This document shows, in pieces, positions 6,001 through 43,752 of a DNA stretch of 64,000 bases. The position numbers and the translations under genes were made by a program. Each line of letters opens with the position of its first letter. Within the stretch, counting starts at the first letter, position 1. The notes beneath the pieces were generated by a model. The model worked only from the letters and a program-made list of their open reading frames with translations, had not been told where the DNA came from and searched no databases. Source of the stretch: an uncultured Rhodobacterales bacterium (GTDB lineage: Bacteria; Pseudomonadota; Alphaproteobacteria; Rhodobacterales; CAZPXZ01); NCBI GenBank assembly GCA_964586735.1, contig CAZPIN010000089.1:1200-65199 (forward strand), written 5' to 3'.

Positions 6001-6307
6001 TGAAACGATTGATCTTGGAGGGCTGACCCTCGATGGCAGCAGTCCATCGGTAACTCTGGATATTGACTCGGAAACGGTTCGAAATCTTGCAGGGGGAGCT
6101 GATGGAACCATTGACAACCGATACAACGAAGAATCCCCCTATGTGCTGAGAATCATTTCCAACCGCGCGTCCGGACTCAACCTAGCCAGCAGCGAATTCG
6201 CAAGAGACGACAGCGCTGATTCCGGCGACCTGCAAGCCTATAGGGCTTCCAGCAATGACTTGCTGGTTGTTCTGGTGGACCCGGACATTACCGTTACACT
6301 GGCTTAA
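56..6307 (+). CDS. Giant polyacidic repeat protein, family member A (BapA-prefix-like N-terminal cassette, one hydrophobic helix, YD-like + DxDxDG repeats, conserved C-terminal cassette)
   Basis: Uninterrupted 2083-codon ORF. The track start at 56 is TTG; the ATG at 119, preceded by GGGGAGAAAG, is the more likely start. N-terminal cassette: RREGDDLVVQLVDGRTLLVPDFF...LSWLEEMFG. An E/A-rich linker and one hydrophobic helix follow (IMVASAVLGVAALVGG, ~nt 668-721). The body is dozens of ~45-55-aa units (Y-x-YD-x-x-G-x-L then DxDxDG-x-x-DR). The protein ends LLVVLVDPDITVTLA. Confidence 0.85.
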   Translation: MTLESAPITYAQQQAWWGESGMSEHSPSSQEVLELDAVTGSVRLPASWVEIVQTRREGDDLVVQLVDGRTLLVPDFFSIAQAVALVREPTGVILALDITPQGESQGVRSVSLSWLEEMFGIEPEEQVAAELDAVEDSEEEPAEESAEDQADEAAAVAAIEEEAEPDQVAAPETQPDSSVAATSSDEDNATSDAPREPKSAGSYVDEIMVASAVLGVAALVGGDEESTSPLAVDPALKPALPDSEVVERGITKTEQARVFNIADWAIPDAARIPSEADVVWTPASGREGTTLQANFDLDGDGAVDAQTRIHFNADYVATGVDFDDNYDGSTDRSVAFTVNESGQHTLARYDDDGDGSYDRAEAYGTDSDGNRVVQHDDDYRGAFLADRIETITQDADGTTVAEIDENGDGSPDRIERRFLDRSETLSEVWVFDLSDGNPEDIDARKTYHYNEIGLLERVDHDEYVDGTVDRSEFYFGGDGEANRSESYFLDSQGRLVAISYDDDNDGNPDWTAVLGYGDAAGGSAISGRAVNPDPREHATGHRATSITIDEDYDRIIDRSEQYEYVSTGYARGRVAAITYDNDHSNDGTFELRETFEYDRSSPQQSQPLRKYVDQFADGTFERVEQYRYSEGLADRVERIEYDDSYDGTSFQSDRAEDIEYNSRGAVSRTRYDDDNDGDADRIEEYRYGLDARVSEVRFDGNADGIWDSIERHRWNGNGKRAGRVYDSDADGTPDRAEAYQYNIKGRLGAIQIDDDADGTVDSSVAIAYNARGQESARLHDDDIDGTANRIDTYSYSGQGVLERLTTQTDHNDNGYTNYERIDTFLYNGGILTSHRVQYDPDEDGSYERDEVTLYSAEGVRYDRTIRRDTNDDGTFNSVERTEWSLSDDSYRITVSLYPDSSLVGSPNRMEVRQYDEQGTIDTGIEYFDYSRDGDWDEVIRTTYANGLPHILEIFEDFDGTMAADRIIVYEYDSEGSVARAKYDDDADGQGTGDFERIETYTGRNSRGDLTSVSYDDNADGVIDRTEVREYNADNLHERSTFLIDENNDLVNERRETLTYNQLGQIVRAEYDGANGPDGSPDALGWVDPTGASYGTVDGTTDWSEETVWFGSAVGRKTLHFHGFVSGAIEKTEVHHFEQGAIGRIDHYGRTLLDGTADSLGEIDPDGTVYGTSDGTADGSPDWTEDFDYAPMPGVALRTTSRYYVAGNSNPKAEVVREDYTDGSFVQINRWDDEGGTADGTMDRAQSRYFAADGQLAYVLDDSNNDGTWESRGQFTFNEQNVATESFVTEYGSDGRAIVRTIASVFEVTPNSRQLREETVTDYSDGGTNADRIVTTRYLTSGADRGKPEQTLVDTNGDGLWETDTVSSYSATGRTDLVSYHLHPTDDSIVNRGERQTFNEVGHLTGIEHDMDYNGTEADFSADATTEHAYEANGRRTVSRFDLNADGTVDIAYSYSYDASGTRESVGIHNDGTISGSADRSETMVYNDDSGLPSQVEYDYDNDSTVDARAINRYDDSGRLIVIRHNDGSSERTETRTFNVRDQIASIARDFDGNGTADALEENRYDSSGRLSRILYDDNHSDDGVYERIVRIVYSNGQIERIQYDMDADSAIDFEVDAFGYDSLGRRVSETTSESGVATRTDTIEYEGNSQRLARRTISWRNVDGDGDGTPGVIERREYDAFGRVTRVEYYDNIAAIASNDEDRIVSYTYNGSTNLVATANFDIDGDGTVSRHATYTYGTNNRLQSIAVNLDLDDDGTTDESETYTYTSDRTVTIEYDGTDDRVEYLTYAGASIQSPSLPGTDVEVPPSVAELASLRSVLEGVARIAHGRIERLATNHISNSNDVTIDEVETYYYNQGGDLIRTDIDMDNDGTVDRRQHISEGDFNWLEVDHNDDGTFDEVYRDVEFDEEGRASVREYSDIESAPDFEVNITEFRLYESASDSLPWAHVRDLDGDPDYDTMYVEFSGGTLEILPTTGSLFPHLETIDLGGLTLDGSSPSVTLDIDSETVRNLAGGADGTIDNRYNEESPYVLRIISNRASGLNLASSEFARDDSADSGDLQAYRASSNDLLVVLVDPDITVTLA

Positions 6308-6569
6308 TTAACAGCGCATCCATCAGTTGTCTTCCGGCAAAGTCGTGGCGAACAAGTACCGCAGCTTTGCCGAGTCAAGGGAACCCACGTCTCAGGAAGA
6401 CCAGCCGGCCATGTCACCAGATATTCCGCCAAATCAGCTCAAGGTAAGCCAGGTTCCGTTGCCCTTTGCTCCTGCTGCCTGTTCCCGCCGGTTGCCTGCC
6501 CGTCAGACGGCATCCCCGATTGCTTCTCTCTGTCATTGCGCCTTGCGGCAGCAGGAATCTGCGGCACTC

Positions 6570-6598
6570 TTGCACCAGTACCAGAGCTGCCTTAGTAT
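6570..6598 (+). promoter_or_regulatory. sigma70-like promoter candidate (TTGCAC-N17-TAGTAT) upstream of the TylF-like methyltransferase gene
   Basis: TTGCAC at 6570-6575, a 17-nt spacer, then TAGTAT at 6593-6598. It lies ~70 nt upstream of the ATG at 6669. Pattern match only. Confidence 0.3.
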
Positions 6599-6668
6599 AC
6601 CAGCATACTCAACCAGTGCACGTTGATACGGTACTGGCTTGTTGCTGCCATATCCCATTGGAGGAACT

Positions 6669-7442
6669 ATGTTCTACGCAAATTTTCGCCCGGGCGAGAG
6701 AGAACGCCTGCAGGAAGTTATCCGCTACCTGCAAAGCACATTCCATAGAGTCTTTGCTATGGACAACCTGATTGCACTGGGAAAGAGCGCAGGGTTCATG
6801 CAGGATAACCGCTTTACGGGCGCTGTAGAGCGCCACGCGAAAACCCAGCAGGAGCATTCGCTGCTCTGGCGGCTGCACACGCTTGTGTGGGCTGCCCAAA
6901 ATGCCCTGTCCGTCCAAGGCGACTTCGTGGAATGCGGAGTTTGGCGCGGATACAGCTGCGCCGTCATCACATCCTATCTGGATTTCGCCAAGATCGACAA
7001 AACCCTGTATCTGTATGACACGTTTCGCGGGATACCCGATTCTTACAATTCAGAGAACCGGCCCAATGCCATCTATGATCGAGAGAACAAGGATGACCCC
7101 GACACCATCCTCAATCATGTCCGCAGCGTTTTCGAACCTTTTCCCAATGTGCGCATTGTGCCAGGCGTAATTCCAGACACCTTCAAGAACGAATGCCCTG
7201 AGCACATTTCTTTTCTCCACATTGACATGAACTCCGCCGCTTCAGAAATGGCCGCTCTAGAGCACCTTTACGACCGCGTGACTCCTGGCGGCATAATAGT
7301 GTTTGACGATTATGGCTGGAACGCCTACATCGCTCAGAAGAAGGCGGAGGACAAGTTCATGTCCGCGCGCAATCAGCACATACTCGAACTGCCCACTGGG
7401 CAGGGTCTTCTCGTGAAGCAGGCACCGGCGAAATCCACCTAA
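6669..7442 (+). CDS. TylF/MycF-family SAM-dependent (sugar) O-methyltransferase
   Basis: ATG at 6669 preceded by GGAGGA; the track ORF begins at 6639. Family-typical motifs: ECGVWRGYSCAVI (SAM-binding E-x-G-V-x-x-G) and FLHIDMNSAASEMAALEHLYDRVTPGGIIVFDDYGW. Confidence 0.8.
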   Translation: MFYANFRPGERERLQEVIRYLQSTFHRVFAMDNLIALGKSAGFMQDNRFTGAVERHAKTQQEHSLLWRLHTLVWAAQNALSVQGDFVECGVWRGYSCAVITSYLDFAKIDKTLYLYDTFRGIPDSYNSENRPNAIYDRENKDDPDTILNHVRSVFEPFPNVRIVPGVIPDTFKNECPEHISFLHIDMNSAASEMAALEHLYDRVTPGGIIVFDDYGWNAYIAQKKAEDKFMSARNQHILELPTGQGLLVKQAPAKST

Positions 7443-7486
7443 CGCAACAAGGATAGCTTCCACACGGCGATGCAACGGAGGCAGTG

Positions 7487-8257
7487 CTACGCCACGCGCC
7501 TGAGATACCCATTGCGGGCTGCAGATATGGACAAGCGATCCGTAATTGCATGATCGCATTCATACTCGGGATGCGTCTGCAAAAAATCCCGAACGGCGGA
7601 CATCGGATTGTTGCCTGGTCCCCATGGCCGGTCTGGATAGGAGTCAGCTGGCATGTCCTCGATAAGGGTGTCAAACACCACGCAGTAGCTGCCCACCGAA
7701 ACTAACGGCGCATAGACTTCCAGCTCAGCCCGGACGTGTTCATGCGTGTGGTTGCTGTCCAAGCATACCAGAATCCGCTCATAGTCCTTGGAGAATTCAC
7801 GCACCCCGTCTAGTACTCCTTCGTCAGTACTTGGCCCTTCCACCATTTCGATCCGCGAGCGCATCGGATGTGCGTCCAGCGCAACGCGATTGTGCTCCCG
7901 AATGTCGATATCGATACCCAGCACCCGCCGATGGGATACTGCAGGATCCATCATCTTACCCGCTTCAATTGCCTCGCACATGTCCAGCATCGCCAGCATT
8001 GATGCGGACAAGACTAGGGAGCCGCCATGGGCAATCCCGGTCTCGATAACCAAGTCTGGCCGCAGCTCCCAGATTAGCTCCTGGATCGCGACAATGTCCT
8101 GCGGATACTGGATGATTGGCCTGTCTAGCCAGTGAAAGTTGTACGAATACCTTGGTCCTACGGACGCCCGCAGGAACTCCAGCGCAGCCTTCCTCAGCCT
8201 TTCATCATTCGCCAGGTCAGCGGTGCGACGCACAACCTCTTCCTTGAAACTGTTCAT
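7487..8257 (-). CDS. CmcI-family ('cephalosporin hydroxylase'-type) methyltransferase
   Basis: ATG at 8257 preceded by GGAGGCGGG; the track ORF extends to 8308. Motifs: RYSYNFHWLDRPIIQYPQDIVAIQELIW, VIETGIAHGGSLV and LDSNHTHEHVRAELEVYAPLVSVGSYCVVFDT, typical of CmcI-like methyltransferases found in glycan clusters. Confidence 0.8.
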   Translation of the reverse strand: MNSFKEEVVRRTADLANDERLRKAALEFLRASVGPRYSYNFHWLDRPIIQYPQDIVAIQELIWELRPDLVIETGIAHGGSLVLSASMLAMLDMCEAIEAGKMMDPAVSHRRVLGIDIDIREHNRVALDAHPMRSRIEMVEGPSTDEGVLDGVREFSKDYERILVCLDSNHTHEHVRAELEVYAPLVSVGSYCVVFDTLIEDMPADSYPDRPWGPGNNPMSAVRDFLQTHPEYECDHAITDRLSISAARNGYLRRVA

Positions 8258-8360
8258 GGACCCGCCTCCGGAAGTGTACAGGCGGCGCGCGTCTTGGCGC
8301 AAGCCCAACCATCTGGCTCCAGGCTGCCATGCTCATCCGCGCCGATTTCTGAATACACAC

Positions 8361-9194
8361 TCATTCTCCCTCCTCCGGGCGTACTCCCACCACGCGGGCA
8401 GGGTCGGTCAGATTGTCCGGACGCGCGCCGAACCTCAGCAGGTCCCGGCGGCCGTATCCATCGGCAATGCTCTCGGCCAGGCTTCGCACGGTGATTCCCT
8501 TGCCAGTCGAGATGTTGGTCGCTCCCTGCCGTGTTCCCAGCGCTTCCGAAACCATCAGTCTAGCGGCGTCCTTGACATCGATGAAGTCCCGCACCTGGCC
8601 TCCGCCGGAGAGTTCGGCCGGTTCCCCTCGCTGCATCTGCTGGTGCAGATAGGGTACCAGACGGCGTGGATCCTCTCCTTCACCGTACAGATAGAACAGC
8701 CTTGCCCACAGAAACGAGATGCTCTTCTCTGCAAAGTAGCTCCGCAGGGTTAAATAGGCCGCCGCTTTGGCCGCCGCGTAGGGTGTCTGCGGGTTCAGCT
8801 GAGTGTCTGCCGTCAGGTCTCCACCGATCAAATCATACTCGAAACAGGTACCAACGCCCACAAAGCGCGGCACACCCGCTTGCGCTGCTCCCTTCGCCAT
8901 AGCCAGAGTACCAGACAGGCAGTCAAGATTTTTGTCAGAAACAAGATACTTCCCCGGTTCGGCATACCAGGCCAGATGCAGTGCCAGGTCCACGCCAGAC
9001 AGCCGCTCCGCCCACCAGTCTGGGCATTCCGCGAACAGATCATCGCTTTCCGCGATGCTGGCGGATTCTGCCGGCAAGCGGCCGGCGGTTCCGGCGCGTA
9101 CCACGCACGCTACCTCGCACCCCTGCACAACCAATTCGGCCATGACTGCCCTGCCAACAAACCCCGTAGCCCCGGTCAATAGCACGCGCGCCAT
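8361..9194 (-). CDS. NAD-dependent epimerase/dehydratase family (extended SDR) sugar-nucleotide reductase/epimerase
   Basis: N-terminal Rossmann motif MARVLLTGATGFVGRAV and catalytic YAAAK (PYAAAKAAAY). Sits within the sugar cluster on the same strand. Confidence 0.8.
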   Translation of the reverse strand: MARVLLTGATGFVGRAVMAELVVQGCEVACVVRAGTAGRLPAESASIAESDDLFAECPDWWAERLSGVDLALHLAWYAEPGKYLVSDKNLDCLSGTLAMAKGAAQAGVPRFVGVGTCFEYDLIGGDLTADTQLNPQTPYAAAKAAAYLTLRSYFAEKSISFLWARLFYLYGEGEDPRRLVPYLHQQMQRGEPAELSGGGQVRDFIDVKDAARLMVSEALGTRQGATNISTGKGITVRSLAESIADGYGRRDLLRFGARPDNLTDPARVVGVRPEEGE

Positions 9195-9303
9195 CAGCGA
9201 CCTCCGCAGCTAAGCCCTTGAGTCGCGCACAATACCTCCGGCGGGTGCGTCAAGGCAGAGTTCGCCGCGAAACGATGTCCGGCGAGGCAACGCGACGGTC
9301 TGT

Positions 9304-9846
9304 TCACAGGGAGGACACTTCGGAGCACGGTGGCAGTTCCTGGTCACGCTGGGACCGTACGGTGACGGTCAGTGGCCACTGAATACCAAGTTCGGGATCA
9401 AGCGCCTGCACGCCGCCCTCGGCTTCCGGCGCGTATGGTGACGAGCAGAAGTACTGCAGCTCGCAATTGGCCGTTAGGGCCTGGTAGCCGTGGGCGAATC
9501 CCTCCGGTACATAGATCGCGTTGCGCGTCTCTGAGTCTAATTCCAGCGAAACGTGCTGGCCAAAACTCTCCGACCCGCTACGCAGGTCGACGATGACATC
9601 GTGCGCGCGGCCGTTCAGCGCCCGCACCAGCTTGCATTCGGCATACGGCGGACGCTGAAAATGCATGCCGCGCAGCGTCCCAGCCTGGACAGACAGGGCG
9701 ACGTTCATCTGCGGCCAGTCGACGTTGAGGCCGGAGTTGGTAAACTCCCTGCTGCAGAAGATTCGCGCGAACATCCCTCGCTCGTCAGCCTTGGGCTCGA
9801 TCAGCACCTCGTACGAGCCGGACAAGGCAAGCGGCCTGATAATCAT
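9304..9846 (-). CDS. RmlC-like cupin sugar-nucleotide 3,5-epimerase
   Basis: 180 aa with RmlC-family signatures (GTLRGMHFQ, AIYVPEGFAHGYQAL). The ATG overlaps the rfbG stop by 4 nt (ATGA at 9843-9846). Confidence 0.75.
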   Translation of the reverse strand: MIIRPLALSGSYEVLIEPKADERGMFARIFCSREFTNSGLNVDWPQMNVALSVQAGTLRGMHFQRPPYAECKLVRALNGRAHDVIVDLRSGSESFGQHVSLELDSETRNAIYVPEGFAHGYQALTANCELQYFCSSPYAPEAEGGVQALDPELGIQWPLTVTVRSQRDQELPPCSEVSSL

Positions 9847-37642: not shown

Positions 37643-39043
37643 ATGTCCGGATACGAATGGACCTTCAAGAGCGTATCTCTGCTCAAGAAAATGCATGCCA
37701 AAGGCGCCGCCGCATCCGCCATTGCCAAGGCGATTGGCGGGAACATCTCGCGGAACGCCGTCATCGGCAAGATCCACAGGCTGGGGCTCTCCATGCCCAA
37801 AGCACAGCAGGAGAAACCGAAGGACGACTCCGGGAAGAAGGGAGACCCGTCTGCCAAGGTCGCATCTGCCACGTCCAAGAGGACAGTGCCTGCGACGCCG
37901 CTGAGTGCCTATGTCAAAGCCAAGGTCAAGGCCAAGGCCAAAACCGCGGCTGAAGGCAGCGGCGCGAAGGCCGAGTCCGGAAAGCCGACCGCCGCCAGAA
38001 AGAACCGCCCGGCAAGCGACGCGGCCGCTGCGAAGCAGACCGTCAAGCCAACCGCAGCCAAGACTCCCATCGCCAGCTTGAAACCGCCCGCGGCCAAGCA
38101 ATCCAACACCAAGCCATCCGCAGCCAAGCCCGCCAGCGCCAAGCCACCCGCAGCCAAACCTGCCAGCGCCAAGAAGCCGCTTGCCAAGAGCGCACTCAAG
38201 ATCGACCCCAAGACGGCAAAGCCATCCGCAAAGCCCGCAGCCCCTGCGGCCAAGGCAGCCACCAGCCCCAAGGCAAAAGCAGCAGACAAGGCCGATGCCA
38301 AACCAGCGGCCATGGCCAAGGCCGCCGCGGCAAAGCCGACCGAAATCACTAAGGCGCCCGCCGCTGCGAAAGCACCTGTCAAGAAGGCCAAGACTGTCGC
38401 AGCCACCAAAACATCGCCTGAGAAAAAAAACCTGGCGATGCCAACACCCGCTACCAGCGGCAAGACCGCTGCCAAGCGAAAGCCCTTGGCGGTGCCGGCG
38501 CCCGCCGCGAAAGCACCCGCAAAGATGGCAAAGGCTGCCGCAGCCGCATCAGCCAGGAAGTCGGCTGGAGCAAAAAAGGCAGCCAGAACACCGACTGGGA
38601 AAAAGCCGCTGGCAATGCCAACCGTCGCCGCCAGTGGCAAAACCGCAGCCAAAGGGAAACCCCGGGCGATGCCGGCGCCTGTTGCCAGCGGCAGAAAGCC
38701 CGTCAAGGCTAAGCCCGACGCGAAGTCAACCGCAGTCGCCGCGAGAAGCAGCAATGCCCCGGCCAAGCCGGCAGCCTCCGCCAAACCGAAGTCCAAGGAA
38801 GCGCAGTCGACCGCAGCGGCGGCGAGCCGCGACAGCGCTCCCGACAAGCCGCCGATTCTGGTGTCTCTGGTAGATCTCACCGAGCGCATCTGTCGCTGGC
38901 CCTACGGCGACCCGAAAACTGACGACTTCGGCTTCTGCGGCCGCCCGGCCATGGCCGGCAAGCCGTACTGCGAACAGCACGCCGCAGCGGCGTTTCAGCC
39001 GCCTAGCGCGCGCAGAGAGCGCGGAAGAGTCCGCAACCGCTGA
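37643..39043 (+). CDS. gcrA: GcrA cell-cycle regulator with a ~300-aa Ala/Lys/Pro-rich insertion
   Basis: GcrA N-terminal DNA-binding domain: WTFKSVSLLKKMHAKGAAASAIAKAIGGNISRNAVIGKIHRLGL. C-terminal domain: LVDLTERICRWPYGDPKTDDFGFCGRPAMAGKPYCEQH. A long AKP-rich repeat linker separates the two domains. Confidence 0.85.
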   Translation: MSGYEWTFKSVSLLKKMHAKGAAASAIAKAIGGNISRNAVIGKIHRLGLSMPKAQQEKPKDDSGKKGDPSAKVASATSKRTVPATPLSAYVKAKVKAKAKTAAEGSGAKAESGKPTAARKNRPASDAAAAKQTVKPTAAKTPIASLKPPAAKQSNTKPSAAKPASAKPPAAKPASAKKPLAKSALKIDPKTAKPSAKPAAPAAKAATSPKAKAADKADAKPAAMAKAAAAKPTEITKAPAAAKAPVKKAKTVAATKTSPEKKNLAMPTPATSGKTAAKRKPLAVPAPAAKAPAKMAKAAAAASARKSAGAKKAARTPTGKKPLAMPTVAASGKTAAKGKPRAMPAPVASGRKPVKAKPDAKSTAVAARSSNAPAKPAASAKPKSKEAQSTAAAASRDSAPDKPPILVSLVDLTERICRWPYGDPKTDDFGFCGRPAMAGKPYCEQHAAAAFQPPSARRERGRVRNR

Positions 39044-39344: not shown

Positions 39345-40343
39345 ATGCGCCTGGTGGAAGGCTTCCCGTTCCCCGTCATGGTGGTTGATGCCAACGGCTA
39401 CATCCGCGCCACCAACGAGCCTGCCCGGCGGCTGTTCGGCGCCGACCTGCTTGGTGCGCATTTCACCGCCGTGCTGCGCGACCTTGGTTTCCGCGAGACT
39501 GTGCGGCGCGCCCTGAACGAGGGCGTCTCTAGCTCCACCGACTTCGACCTCCAGCGCAGCACCGACCTGCATTTCCGCGCCACCGCGCAGCCGGTCAATA
39601 TCGCGGGTATGGGCCGCTGCGCCTGCGTGTGCCTCGTCAACCGCACGGCCGAGCAGCGGCAGGTCAGCCTTCACCGCGACTTCGTGGCCAACGCCAGCCA
39701 TGAGCTGCGAACACCGCTCGCCACCGTGACAGCCTGCATTGAGACGCTGCGCGGCCCGGCGCGCGCGGACCGGGTGGCGATGGACCGGTTTCTCGAGGTT
39801 CTGCGGCGCGAGGCCGTGCGGATGCGGTCGGTGGTCGACGACCTGCTGTCGCTCAACCAGATTGAGCAGTACGAACATGTGCGGCCCGCCGACTGGCTGG
39901 ACCTGGCGCAGGTCGCCCGCGAGGCCATGGCGCGTAGGCCGCCAGAAGGACAGGTGGCGGTGGAAGGCGAGGCCGAGGCCAGGGTGGCCGGCGACCGCAC
40001 CGAGCTGCTGCACGCGCTGGCCAACCTCCTCGACAACGCCGACCGGCACGCCGGCGGTGCCCGGAGGGTGAGGGTGCTGGCAGAGGACGAGCGGGTCGGG
40101 GTGGCAATCGAGGATGACGGTCCGGGGGTTGCCCGCGAGCACTTGCCGCGGCTAACGGAACGGTTCTACCGGGTGGAACCAGCCAGCGGAGGGCAGCAGC
40201 AAGGCACCGGCCTAGGCCTCGCCATCGTCAAGCACGTGGCGGCGCATCACGGCGGCACTCTGGACATCGACAGCAAGCCTGGCCGCGGCAGCCGCTTCAC
40301 CCTGTGGGTAGCCCGCGAATCCATCTCACGGACATCCATATGA
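39345..40343 (+). CDS. phoR: Phosphate-regulon sensor histidine kinase (PAS + HisKA + HATPase), start uncertain
   Basis: H-box FVANASHELRTPL and G2 box GTGLGLAIVKHVAAHHGGTLDIDSKPGRGSRF. The PAS-like N-terminus starts at MRLVEGFPFPVMVVDANGYI (ATG 39345). The ORF is open from 39090, with an alternative ATG at 39291. No TM segment appears under any start choice. Confidence 0.8.
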   Translation: MRLVEGFPFPVMVVDANGYIRATNEPARRLFGADLLGAHFTAVLRDLGFRETVRRALNEGVSSSTDFDLQRSTDLHFRATAQPVNIAGMGRCACVCLVNRTAEQRQVSLHRDFVANASHELRTPLATVTACIETLRGPARADRVAMDRFLEVLRREAVRMRSVVDDLLSLNQIEQYEHVRPADWLDLAQVAREAMARRPPEGQVAVEGEAEARVAGDRTELLHALANLLDNADRHAGGARRVRVLAEDERVGVAIEDDGPGVAREHLPRLTERFYRVEPASGGQQQGTGLGLAIVKHVAAHHGGTLDIDSKPGRGSRFTLWVARESISRTSI

Positions 40344-40599
40344 ATCATTTTGCAGCCGCCGTCTCAGCGTCTCCTTCGTTCCACCACATCATGTACAACC
40401 CTAGATGGACGATCAGGCGCAGGGCTGGACTCATCCACGCCTCTCCGCAAACACCGCTGCGTTACCGCCGTATCCTGACCCGGACGCCCGATTCTGCAAT
40501 TGAGACTGTTTCCCACTTCCGGGACTTTGACACAAAGCGCCCCCAACTGCCCCGATTGGAATGGACTCCCGTTTGGAACAGCATGCGCTCTTCTTGATG

Positions 40600-41079
40600 T
40601 CACTCCAAGTGAGGTGACAACTTGTCTCCGTTGAAATATATTACATGGCTTGGTGAATCTGCGCACCACACCACTGTTTCCCAAGAAATTTCCTGCAAGT
40701 GCCTTCCCATCACCGATCTATCAGGGAACGCGGATACCAGCACCAGTTTTGACTGGCATGGCTCAAACAGCCGCATGAGCTCCCCAAATCGCTTCGCGTC
40801 GGCTGGACCATGACTGACCACGCATTCTACCAAAAGGAGCCAATCCTTCTTTTCGTAATGCAATACCACATCTGGCATCTTGCCGTGCTTATCCAGTGTA
40901 ATACCCGCATTAGCCAGCCAAATTTTGTCCATATACTTGTTCTTTGTCTGTGTGTCGCCAACATATATTGCTTTTGCGCCCGGCGTGAACCTTGGTGCAA
41001 ATTCCTCAATTGCATCCTTTGCCAGATTGTTATGGTCTCCTGGCGAAAGACTCAATTTCTTTCCGCCTTGAAATACCAC
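40600..41079 (-). CDS. BsuBI/PstI-family restriction endonuclease, C-terminal (catalytic) portion only
   Basis: LSPGDHNNLAKDAIEEFAPRFTPGAKAIYVGDT...MPDVVLHYEKKDWLLLVECVVSHGP...ISWETVVWCADSPSHVIYFNGDKL matches the family C-terminal domain as I recall it. The track start is a GTG. The ORF is in the same frame as 41092-43233, separated by a TAG plus 4 codons. Confidence 0.6.
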   Translation of the reverse strand: MVFQGGKKLSLSPGDHNNLAKDAIEEFAPRFTPGAKAIYVGDTQTKNKYMDKIWLANAGITLDKHGKMPDVVLHYEKKDWLLLVECVVSHGPADAKRFGELMRLFEPCQSKLVLVSAFPDRSVMGRHLQEISWETVVWCADSPSHVIYFNGDKLSPHLE

Positions 41080-41091
41080 ATCGACCTTGCA

Positions 41092-43233
41092 CTATTCACG
41101 CTCCCTAGACCACTTTCTTGCAAGGCTGTTCTTTAATTTCAAAACGGTGTTTGTCGCTTCTGCCCACCCATCTGTGCCGTATGTCACCAGTACATCCGCC
41201 GCATCCTGACTCAATTGATAGCACGCATGCGGACTATTCACCGGGCGATCTGGTTGATCGGGGTTGTACAACGCAATACCTGCCTCGACAAATTGATGCA
41301 TGGTTTGCCTTCTAAATGTTTCTCTGGTGTTTGGGGCATAATTTCGCCCGTACATCTCTAAAGCAAACTTCATAATTGGCGTAATTCCAATCAAAGGAAG
41401 TGAAATTTCGCTCCACGATCCATCCGGCTTTAGATCTGCCAGTGCCAGCAAAGTGAGAGCCGATCTCTCATTCTGCTGGGCCCGCGGCAAACCGAGGGAT
41501 CTCAGTATTTCTGTTGCTTGCTCGACTTTTTTCTGTGCAAGCAATGGGTTTTCATCCCCGAAGAGCTCAGCCATTTTTTCCTCCAGGATTTGATCCACGG
41601 TACGTTGTGAGAATACAGAATCTTCGAACTTCCTTCCCATTGAAAGCAGGGCTTCCTTCTCCGGGTAGCGCAGCGCTCGAAGATCTGTTGCATTCACCTG
41701 TGTATGCCCATTGAACTGACGAAAGTATCTGTCAACCAAGCTGCTGTTGAGGAATGCGCATATTCCATGCGCAAGCCGTTTCTGCATTCCTCGCTGATTG
41801 ACGTGAAATACGTTGAGGTGGTTCTCGAACCCAACAAGATCGCCTGGCAGCCCGGAATCATACACGCTTGCAACGATTCTCCGTCGGTCTTCCTTTGCGG
41901 AGAGTCTTCGAACCACAACGTAATATCCCTTATTTTTCCACAGCCACTTTCTGCTGCTGTTCGTTACCGTTATGGCGTTTGGCTTTTTCATATCCTTGGG
42001 CCATTCCAGCCGGCATAATGGAAAGTGCGCCGGATAGAGCAGAGGAGCAGACGACCGGCATGGACGCTTGCGCAATTGCCCCTTGTGCCGATATTCCACT
42101 ATTGGCCCCGTGGACACTTCAACGCCCAGATCTCCAAGCGACACCGGAAGAAGCGCCATTCGGCCCGCGACCACTTCGTCAATTTTGTTGGTCAGAATGT
42201 TGATAAACTTGTTTGGATCGGCCGGGCGCACAATCTTCTCATATGGCAACGCCTGCATTGTTTCCGCCTGTATACTGCACGTCAATGCACCCGTCTCTTT
42301 AGCGTGCTCGGCAATTCCGCCTGCAGACACGAACACGGTCTTTACGCCCGCACCCTTTACAGCGTGAACAATCACATTCTCCTGAAGCACTCCATAATCC
42401 CGAAACGCCGTGTTGCGCTGATCAAATACATGTATTTGCCGAATGGACATCATTGACAGAAACTGCTGCCTGAATGACCTGAAGTACGGGCCATTACAGA
42501 AAGAGCGGGGTACGATAGCCACAAGCTCGCCGCCAGACTCCAGTTTCATGGCGGCAAGATGCATAAAGCCGGTATACAAATTTGTCGCATCTATGCCCAA
42601 AGCCGCCAGCGCTTGCCGATGCGCCGATGATGAATGAATCTTCTTGTACGGAGGATTCATAATAACATGGGTGAAGCACTCATCATGCCGCGCATTGGCG
42701 CAAAGATACTCAGACTGGCACAGAATAAAATCCTGCTCGCGAACGTCAAAGCGCGCTTCAATGCGTGAATCCGTGCATTGCTGCATGGCGTCCTGAAGCA
42801 CGCGCTGAAGATAGTTGATCATAAGGTGCTCAATTTCATAGCAGGTTAGATCGACTGAACATGGCTTCGGGGCTCCGTTGCAGATTCTCTCAACAAAAGC
42901 GGCGGAAAGCGATCCGACGCCTGCGCCGGGGTCCAAGACACGAACTTCGCCATCGACCCTGTCAAACATACTGGCCAGGAATCGCGCAAGCGGAGCCGCC
43001 GTAAGAAATTGCCCAAGCTCCGCCTTTCGCTTCTGGTCGACTCGACAGGAAGCGTCGGCGCGATAGTAGTCTACCATCTCAATGGGAGCGACGGTCTGCA
43101 TGATGTGTCTAGCCTCGAACATAACCCTTCGAGACAGTGTCGCGCTTTGCTCTGCCGCGGCAGCGCGCAAACGACGGAACACGCCAAAGAGGTCATTACA
43201 GGCGCATAGTACAGTGTCCCCTGTCGATGTCAA
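41092..43233 (-). CDS. N6-adenine DNA methyltransferase (Eco57I/PstI-methylase-like) fused to the N-terminal domain of a BsuBI/PstI-family endonuclease
   Basis: SAM motif VLDPGAGVGSL and catalytic VIMNPPYKK. The C-terminal ~190 aa (ILRSLGLPRAQQNERSALTLLALADL...ITPIMKFALEMYGRNYAPNTRETFRRQTMHQFVEAG) look like the endonuclease N-domain. Terminates at a TAG at 41092-41094. The start is uncertain (43233, or ATGs ~110-130 nt downstream). Confidence 0.8.
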   Translation of the reverse strand: MTSTGDTVLCACNDLFGVFRRLRAAAAEQSATLSRRVMFEARHIMQTVAPIEMVDYYRADASCRVDQKRKAELGQFLTAAPLARFLASMFDRVDGEVRVLDPGAGVGSLSAAFVERICNGAPKPCSVDLTCYEIEHLMINYLQRVLQDAMQQCTDSRIEARFDVREQDFILCQSEYLCANARHDECFTHVIMNPPYKKIHSSSAHRQALAALGIDATNLYTGFMHLAAMKLESGGELVAIVPRSFCNGPYFRSFRQQFLSMMSIRQIHVFDQRNTAFRDYGVLQENVIVHAVKGAGVKTVFVSAGGIAEHAKETGALTCSIQAETMQALPYEKIVRPADPNKFINILTNKIDEVVAGRMALLPVSLGDLGVEVSTGPIVEYRHKGQLRKRPCRSSAPLLYPAHFPLCRLEWPKDMKKPNAITVTNSSRKWLWKNKGYYVVVRRLSAKEDRRRIVASVYDSGLPGDLVGFENHLNVFHVNQRGMQKRLAHGICAFLNSSLVDRYFRQFNGHTQVNATDLRALRYPEKEALLSMGRKFEDSVFSQRTVDQILEEKMAELFGDENPLLAQKKVEQATEILRSLGLPRAQQNERSALTLLALADLKPDGSWSEISLPLIGITPIMKFALEMYGRNYAPNTRETFRRQTMHQFVEAGIALYNPDQPDRPVNSPHACYQLSQDAADVLVTYGTDGWAEATNTVLKLKNSLARKWSRERE

Positions 43234-43752
43234 GTTACAGTACCAGCGTGCATGAAGCTTCGAGTACGGCCCGGAAGGCTACACAGCCCACGCCAGCCGC
43301 CTGTCCGGACATCGCTCCCAGCTCACCCGCGGTCGTACTTGGCATTCCCGACACTCTCCCCAGCCAGCCGAAGCCAGCAGTAGTGTTCCAGCAGCTCCTC
43401 CGCCGGCATGTCCCGCAGGTTGGCAACCGCCCTGCTAGTCCGTCCCATCACTTCTCCCCGGCAGTCTTCTCCACATCTATCACCAGCCGCACCGCCAACC
43501 CACGGCGAGAGTTCGTGGGATGCCGCTGTCCGAAACCTTCTCCTTGAGGCTTCTGCTCCTCTCCATCTTCAGTCGCTTCACTCTGTGTACCGCCCGCGAA
43601 TCTGCCTGCAGTACGGCTTTGATACCACGGCCAGAAGCGCTGCCGACTGCAACATTTCCGCAACATAATTGCCCGCCCTTCCATCGCCCAACATGCCAGA
43701 CTAGCGGCAACGGCATCGACCAGAGATGCCATCCATATAATTGGAGCATCCC

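Follow-up and report, generated by a model that had tools for sequence, protein, structure and literature searches.

Does a stop codon inside a fused restriction-modification (R-M) gene mark the loss of its nuclease, or does such a gene go on working in two pieces, by read-through, or not at all? The question is raised by a gene on the minus strand of a 64,000-nucleotide stretch of contig CAZPIN010000089.1 from an uncultured Rhodobacterales bacterium (the whole stretch is called the window here), in which a DNA methyltransferase (M) runs in frame into a BsuBI/PstI-type restriction endonuclease (R) and a TAG codon stands between the DNA-binding and the catalytic domain of the endonuclease. A first-pass annotation had offered three explanations for the TAG: an endonuclease inactivated by a nonsense mutation, with an orphan methylase left carrying a useless tail; a split enzyme whose halves reassemble; and a low-level read-through design that limits nuclease dosage. 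We consider it rather probable that the endonuclease has recently been inactivated by a nonsense mutation, leaving an orphan methylase with a helix-turn-helix (HTH) tail.

Gene layout and the in-frame stop

The longer of the two open reading frames (ORFs), at 41092-43233 on the minus strand, extends over 713 codons from a TTG and ends at the TAG, both in the ORF list and in the sequence itself. The shorter, at 40600-41079 on the same strand, has 159 codons from a GTG and shares its frame, and the gap between them consists of the TAG (41092-41094) and four codons (41080-41091), exactly as the first-pass annotation had read them. Pfam places an Eco57I-type methyltransferase domain (PF07669, residues 172-274, E 1e-10, 42.4 bits against a cut-off of 25.3) and the winged-helix domain BsuBI_PstI_RE_N (PF17728, residues 568-705, E 2.5e-52, profile positions 2-139 of 140) in the longer ORF, and BsuBI_PstI_RE (PF06616, E 6.9e-53) in the shorter one; adding the four codons after the TAG extends this last match to profile positions 2-153 of 154. 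Across the TAG, the R part stays collinear with SdaI, an endonuclease made as one chain (2IXS; E 6.8e-68, query 10-312 against chain 14-317). An N6-adenine methyltransferase joined in frame to a BsuBI/PstI endonuclease N-terminal domain had been proposed from short peptides, and the Pfam matches bear this out, with all the quoted peptides present; the worry that the C-terminal part of the longer ORF might not derive from an endonuclease is removed by the PF17728 match and the collinearity with SdaI.

The two endonuclease domains do not lie on one uninterrupted polypeptide, since the TAG separates them. No continuous ORF encodes the whole fusion, and a three-domain architecture of about 840 residues is matched only if the TAG is read through. 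The likely start is ATG 43101 (MQTVAPIE...), on which the homolog alignment and a database gene call (P0001, 100% identity) agree, and it gives a product of 669 residues. A read-through product would therefore have about 833 residues; the proposal of a fusion in one frame stands, and its length of about 877 residues does not. Motif I (LDPGAGVGSL) and motif IV (NPPYKK) of the methyltransferase occur in gamma order and are both invariant in the family alignment, and the enzyme qualifies as a predicted gamma-class N6-adenine DNA methyltransferase of the Eco57I type. The parts of the gene are as follows.

41095..43101, minus strand: truncated 669-residue product, methyltransferase plus winged helix-turn-helix (wHTH); the ORF is open upstream to TTG 43233; start as in P0001 and the homologs
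42232..43101, minus strand: predicted gamma-class N6-adenine methyltransferase core (Pfam, alignment, conserved sites)
41542..42231, minus strand: middle region, presumed target-recognition region (TRD) of the methyltransferase
41119..41532, minus strand: N-terminal wHTH domain of a BsuBI/PstI/SdaI endonuclease, PF17728 (Pfam, SdaI alignment)
41092..41094, minus strand: in-frame TAG in the linker from HTH to nuclease, aligned with the conserved Met of REMQMIPV
41080..41091, minus strand: four codons from TAG to GTG, reading CKVD, diverged from the family QMIP and including the change P674D
40600..41079, minus strand: cut-off PD-(D/E)XK nuclease domain, PF06616, 159 codons from GTG, with T762V at 40816-40818
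43206..43233, minus strand: sigma-70-like promoter match, TTGACA-16-TACTAT, 10 of 12 positions, a consensus match only

The promoter-like match lies about 105 nt upstream of ATG 43101, and a search for an intrinsic terminator at the locus found none.

Were the TAG a sequencing or assembly error, the gene would be an intact 833-residue fusion. The lesion is a single codon in a frame that is otherwise open over its whole length (about 833 codons, or 877 counted from the upstream TTG), and the source, with a contig of 69,941 bp, is apparently a draft or metagenome-derived assembly, both of which would suit an error. Against it, contigs in the Logan assemblies of SRR16090825, SRR16090826 and SRR16090827, three separate runs, match the window with 100% identity over stretches of 1.2-2.3 kb, TAG included. 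The 159-residue ORF has an exact match in the Logan assemblies of SRR16090825 and SRR16090827, and the assembly of SRR16090826 carries an alternative gene call of the same DNA. The identical TAG in three separate assemblies makes a one-off assembly error unlikely; moreover, passing from the ATG of the family to TAG takes two base changes, and the linker adjoining the TAG has diverged too. We regard an error, which the first-pass annotation had itself named as a danger to its reading, as very improbable.

Programmed or suppressor-mediated read-through of the TAG, which would produce a little full-length M-R enzyme and keep the nuclease dose low, appears to us the most far-fetched of the explanations. 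The frame is kept across the stop, and basal read-through of UAG occurs at a low level in bacteria. However, TAG closes ordinary genes here: it terminates 5 of the 17 ORFs in the window with high GC content at third codon positions, the adjacent pstS among them, and no tRNA with a CUA anticodon is encoded in the 64-kb window, whose sole tRNA is Leu-UAA. A recoding of TAG was rejected on the same two grounds, the 5/17 ORFs being well supported. Neither is the stop conserved, as it occurs at this position in none of the 80 related genomic loci that we compared position by position at the TAG site and surveyed for lesions and neighbours. The read-through design proposed earlier is thus left without positive support.

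The single-chain family and where its members break

A protein search with the read-through product returned the window's own 669-residue protein and 119 other listed matches, all of them intact. Every one of the 119 has 837-881 residues, carries PF07669, PF17728 and PF06616, and shows 53-59% identity at 97-100% coverage; no relative closer than 59% identity was found among the protein matches listed. The search scored at least 8,000 candidates, all at E <= 1e-5. At least 589 genomic loci, spread over many phyla, encode a relative (at least 600 stretches matched in representative genomes), with hosts in the Proteobacteria, Cyanobacteria, Acidobacteriota, Chloroflexota, Planctomycetes, Myxococcus, Pseudomonas, Xenorhabdus and others. 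An intact member joins an N-terminal gamma-class N6-adenine methyltransferase of about 515 residues to a complete SdaI/PstI/BsuBI-type endonuclease of about 320 residues, and NCBI labels such proteins either 'BsuBI/PstI family type II restriction endonuclease' or 'N-6 DNA methylase'. Methyltransferase domains on some members of the R.SdaI subfamily were described earlier and read as independent translational fusions (Orlowski and Bujnicki, 2008, PMC2441816). The M-R fusion is already known and annotated, and the window copy is a degenerate member of it.

A conserved partner gene (a controller protein or a second methylase) was sought around 80 family loci and none was found; the fusion is a solitary one-gene module, and so is the window copy. 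The single-chain form, very common in genomes, has the methylase at its N-terminus, the nuclease at its C-terminus and two independent DNA-recognition modules; according to a 2014 review, Type IIC enzymes mostly have the nuclease at the N-terminus. A limited literature search found no paper with a biochemical characterisation of the single-chain form. Surveying databases for M-R fused homologs, as the first-pass annotation had recommended, thus finds intact fusions of about 840 residues in abundance. The accompanying statement that M and R are separate polypeptides holds for PstI, BsuBI and the plasmid relatives described below; that a fusion would be unusual does not hold, given the intact form of all 119 listed matches and the number of loci. 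The locus has some modest value as a correction to the view that M and R of the PstI/BsuBI type always come as two proteins.

The domain layout suggests how an intact member may work. A monomeric gamma-class N6-methyladenine (m6A) methylase with its own recognition region would share a chain with an SdaI-like endonuclease whose wHTH domains would form a dimer at a palindromic site (PMC1874659). Cleavage would then require dimerisation and hence a sufficient concentration, methylation would require neither, and this difference could supply the delay that two-gene systems get through regulation.

At the position aligned with the TAG of the window, the residue is Met in 61 of the 80 loci, Leu in 14, Ile in 4 and Gln in 1, with a stop in none of them. 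By codon, these are ATG in 62 cases, TTG in 5, other Leu codons in 9, Ile codons in 4 and CAA in 1, the extra ATG over the 61 Met being that of the second R copy of locus L015. The alignment that the first-pass annotation had asked for therefore gives a clear answer: the TAG replaces the conserved linker Met of REMQMIPV. The linker motif RE-M-Q-M-IPV, which contains two Met codons, is strongly conserved among the 19 closest aligned fusions and more variable family-wide; the window linker reads RE-stop-CKVDV and has diverged exactly at this motif (columns corresponding to window 41074-41097). A frameshift was considered as the cause of the diverged linker and rejected, as neither of the remaining frames, read by eye, fits the family motif any better. 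Locus L015 itself, from Pseudomonas sp. NPDC086278, carries an intact M-R fusion (6001-8469) and, about 110 bp downstream, an endonuclease-only copy (8582-9499) that aligns with query residues 526-831 at 46% identity.

Natural two-gene forms do occur among the relatives, and they break elsewhere. They are divided at the boundary between M and R (query 509-517) with R kept whole, and the junction between HTH and nuclease is broken in 0 of the 80 loci. In L042 and L047, M stops at query 509-517 and R begins directly afterwards with an in-frame ATG, and L068 has a stop in the same boundary region. The methylase stop, TAA or TGA, abuts the endonuclease ATG in L042 (7510) and L047 (7540); one stop-codon substitution would therefore make a fusion, and these two loci look like a snapshot of fusion/fission interconversion in the family. 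The break point of the window is no recurrent arrangement. The first-pass annotation had reasoned that homologs routinely split in the same way would point to a functional two-gene system, and the count of 0/80 speaks against such a system.

The window gene resembles the single-chain fusions of the BsuBI/PstI/SdaI family in the order of its three Pfam domains, in being collinear over 97-100% at 53-59% identity, and in being a solitary gene; it differs from them by the TAG in the linker (Met, Leu, Ile or Gln in the relatives), by the diverged linker and by T762V. The closest plasmid relatives, annotated as two-gene systems (for example on Nitrosospira multiformis NC_007616 and on Pseudomonas aeruginosa plasmids), have homologous M and R parts arranged head to tail, M then R, with 46-48% identity over 96-97% of the read-through product. 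Here an Eco57I-type M of about 490-505 residues and a complete R of about 317-323 residues are separate genes with a 4-nt overlap, so that the break falls at the M-R boundary, whereas in the window it falls inside R. EcoGIII of Stx phages is, by literature description, a PstI-like system (CTGCAG, m6A). R.SdaI (PDB 2IXS; CCTGCAGG) aligns end to end with the R part and shares its wHTH and PD-(D/E)XK domains, with the D, E and Arg260-equivalent residues conserved; in contrast to the window protein, it is a free-standing endonuclease with a separate methylase.

Of the 80 loci, about 9% are interrupted, four by frameshifts (L019, L074, L077 and L078) and three by nonsense codons inside domains (L024, L069 and L075). 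Point decay is therefore routine in this family. Point inactivation of R with M retained is the usual fate of R-M systems, and orphan methyltransferases arise when the R gene of such a system decays. By itself, the TAG is of little consequence, an ordinary decay for such genes. The window gene is like the usual orphan methyltransferases in that a point lesion has probably cost it the nuclease and the methylase retains its motifs, and differs from them in that M and R were once one polypeptide, so the surviving methylase retains the DNA-binding domain of the endonuclease as a C-terminal tail. The remaining interest lies in the fusion family itself and in this natural methylase-wHTH chimera, which is of modest value for learning how two recognition modules cooperate.

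Constraint before and after the stop

Constraint was assessed against a background of 87 intact relatives, and a site was called conserved if it is kept in at least 95% of the family. The identity of the nuclease domain to its relatives is 0.053 below the prediction based on the upstream part, lower than in all 87 intact members; set against the methyltransferase plus TRD region alone, the domain gives z = -2.5, with 1 of the 87 members lower. The HTH domain diverges as expected (z = +0.24), and the linker is the most diverged stretch. Changes private to the window were found at conserved sites in the following numbers.

Methyltransferase core: 0 of 55 conserved sites
Middle region/TRD: 5 of 50, all conservative (BLOSUM62 >= 0), more than in each of the 87 members
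HTH: 0 of 38
Linker: 1 of 2 (P674D)
Nuclease domain: 3 of 44 (T762V, T790S, H822Y)

One of the three changes in the nuclease domain lies near the active site. SdaI has an EXXK variant of the active site with Lys251 plus Arg260, of which Arg260 matters more (PMC3045609). In the window, the aspartate of PD (D744) and the glutamate (E759) are retained, as is K770-R771, which corresponds to Arg260. The position of SdaI Lys251 (T762) is Thr in 86 of the 87 family members and Ser in the remaining one, and it is Val in the window. Taken together, the pattern is suggestive rather than strong evidence for a recent lesion, after which the cut-off part may have begun to drift and lost one near-active-site invariant residue with the methyltransferase core and the HTH untouched.

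Several observations weigh against this account. On the conserved-site test, the stricter of the two, the nuclease domain is no outlier, as 6 of the 87 members have three or more changes. The TRD, which lies upstream of the stop, has more private changes than any member, so the excess divergence does not begin strictly at the stop. The decay is slight, and the nuclease may thus still function: its frame is open for 163 codons and retains D744, E759, K770 and R771. Finally, the GTG, preceded by AAGG, follows 12 nt after the TAG, which makes re-initiation physically possible.

The five TRD changes are also the main point in favour of a gene that is dead as a whole, in which neither methylase nor nuclease is made or active and the upstream conservation reflects only too little time. 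The nearest relative stands at 59% identity and there are no close relatives by which to gauge selection directly, and the sole expression signal is the promoter-like consensus match, both of which fit this possibility as well. On the other side, the methyltransferase core and the HTH together have 0/93 private changes while the region past the stop is over-diverged, the five TRD changes are all conservative, and methyltransferase motifs I and IV are intact. A wholly dead relic seems unlikely to us, though of the alternatives it is the one we take most seriously.

The re-initiation signal bears on a functional split enzyme, in which ribosomes would restart at GTG 41079 and a free 159-residue nuclease would join the methylase-wHTH protein, perhaps at reduced dose. 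TAG and GTG are 12 nt apart, with the Shine-Dalgarno-like AAGG 5 nt ahead of the GTG; the nuclease frame is open with its catalytic D, E and K-R residues kept, and SdaI is modular, DNA binding and catalysis residing in different domains. Yet the GTG is the inherited codon of the family-invariant V675 and no newly evolved start, the AAGG match is only 4 nt long, natural splits always leave R whole and never fall at the junction between HTH and nuclease (0/80), and the constraint on the nuclease domain is relaxed, with the invariant T762 lost. We consider such an enzyme improbable, and the split proposed in the first-pass annotation finds no positive support. A broader form of the same idea, that the truncation is a maintained state, is doubtful to a similar degree: selection would keep a methyltransferase with the sequence-specific wHTH domain as a working tail, which might for example recruit the methylase to its target site or serve autoregulation, and/or the 159-residue nuclease re-initiated at GTG 41079 would act in trans. 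If the detached nuclease did act in trans, an R-M enzyme that is normally a single chain would exist here in two pieces, divided within R.

A nonsense-inactivated endonuclease therefore remains the best supported of the three original explanations, with one amendment. The tail left on the methylase need not be called useless, as the HTH domain has no private changes at its 38 conserved sites and its divergence is as expected. Under the favoured explanation, the M-R gene would have come in with a low-GC islet of 3.3 kb, whose insertion site is the 3' end of a PhoR-like kinase gene, just upstream of pstS, and the TAG would then have arisen in the linker between the wHTH and nuclease domains. Translation would halt after 669 residues, yielding the methyltransferase with the endonuclease DNA-binding domain and without the nuclease, and the 159-codon remnant would be a young pseudogene fragment in which drift has begun. 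The host would be left with what is effectively an orphan methyltransferase: methylation probably persists in the window copy, presumably by a still active methylase with a CTGCAG-like target, and restriction activity would be gone.

The low-GC islet and its surroundings

The GC content across the M-R gene is 48-53%, against 65-72% in the flanks, and the gene sits alone in an islet bounded by direct repeats.

40322..43569, no strand assigned: low-GC islet of about 3.3 kb carrying the M-R gene alone, GC 48-60% against 65-72% in the flanks
40289..40321, plus strand: left copy of a 33-nt imperfect direct repeat, lying in the final codons of the PhoR-like kinase gene
43570..43602, plus strand: right copy of the 33-nt imperfect direct repeat, upstream of pstS

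The islet lies between the gene for a PhoR-like histidine kinase and pstS (pstSCA). The two repeats are 82% identical, with a local score of 38 against 20.2 +/- 2.3 for shuffles (maximum 30), and both copies encode the peptide SRFTL..ARES of the kinase C-terminus. No remnant of an integrase, a controller or another gene was found in the non-coding flanks of the islet (Pfam, 0 matches at E <= 1). R-M insertion with long target duplication has been described for R and M homologs in an insert of less than 20 kb without a mobility gene, flanked by a direct repeat of more than 30 bp (Furuta, Abe and Kobayashi, 2010, PMC2853133). The insert here measures 3.28 kb, and its repeat, at 33 nt, is just over that threshold; judged by its sequence, the islet looks like such an insertion at the 3' end of the PhoR-like kinase gene.

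Avoidance of CTGCAG, which would hint at past restriction pressure, is not seen in the 64-kb window. The site is over-represented, with 37 occurrences against 22.6 +/- 4.2 expected from dinucleotide shuffles, none of 100 shuffles reaching 37. One CTGCAG stands directly after the right islet repeat (43606-43611).

Elsewhere in the window, at 37643-39043 on the plus strand, a gene encodes a homolog of the cell-cycle regulator GcrA (Pfam GcrA, E 7e-28). The match covers residues 5-459 of the protein with a profile of only 155 positions; the N- and C-terminal GcrA parts are therefore split by a low-complexity insert of at least about 300 residues, rich in Ala, Lys and Pro.

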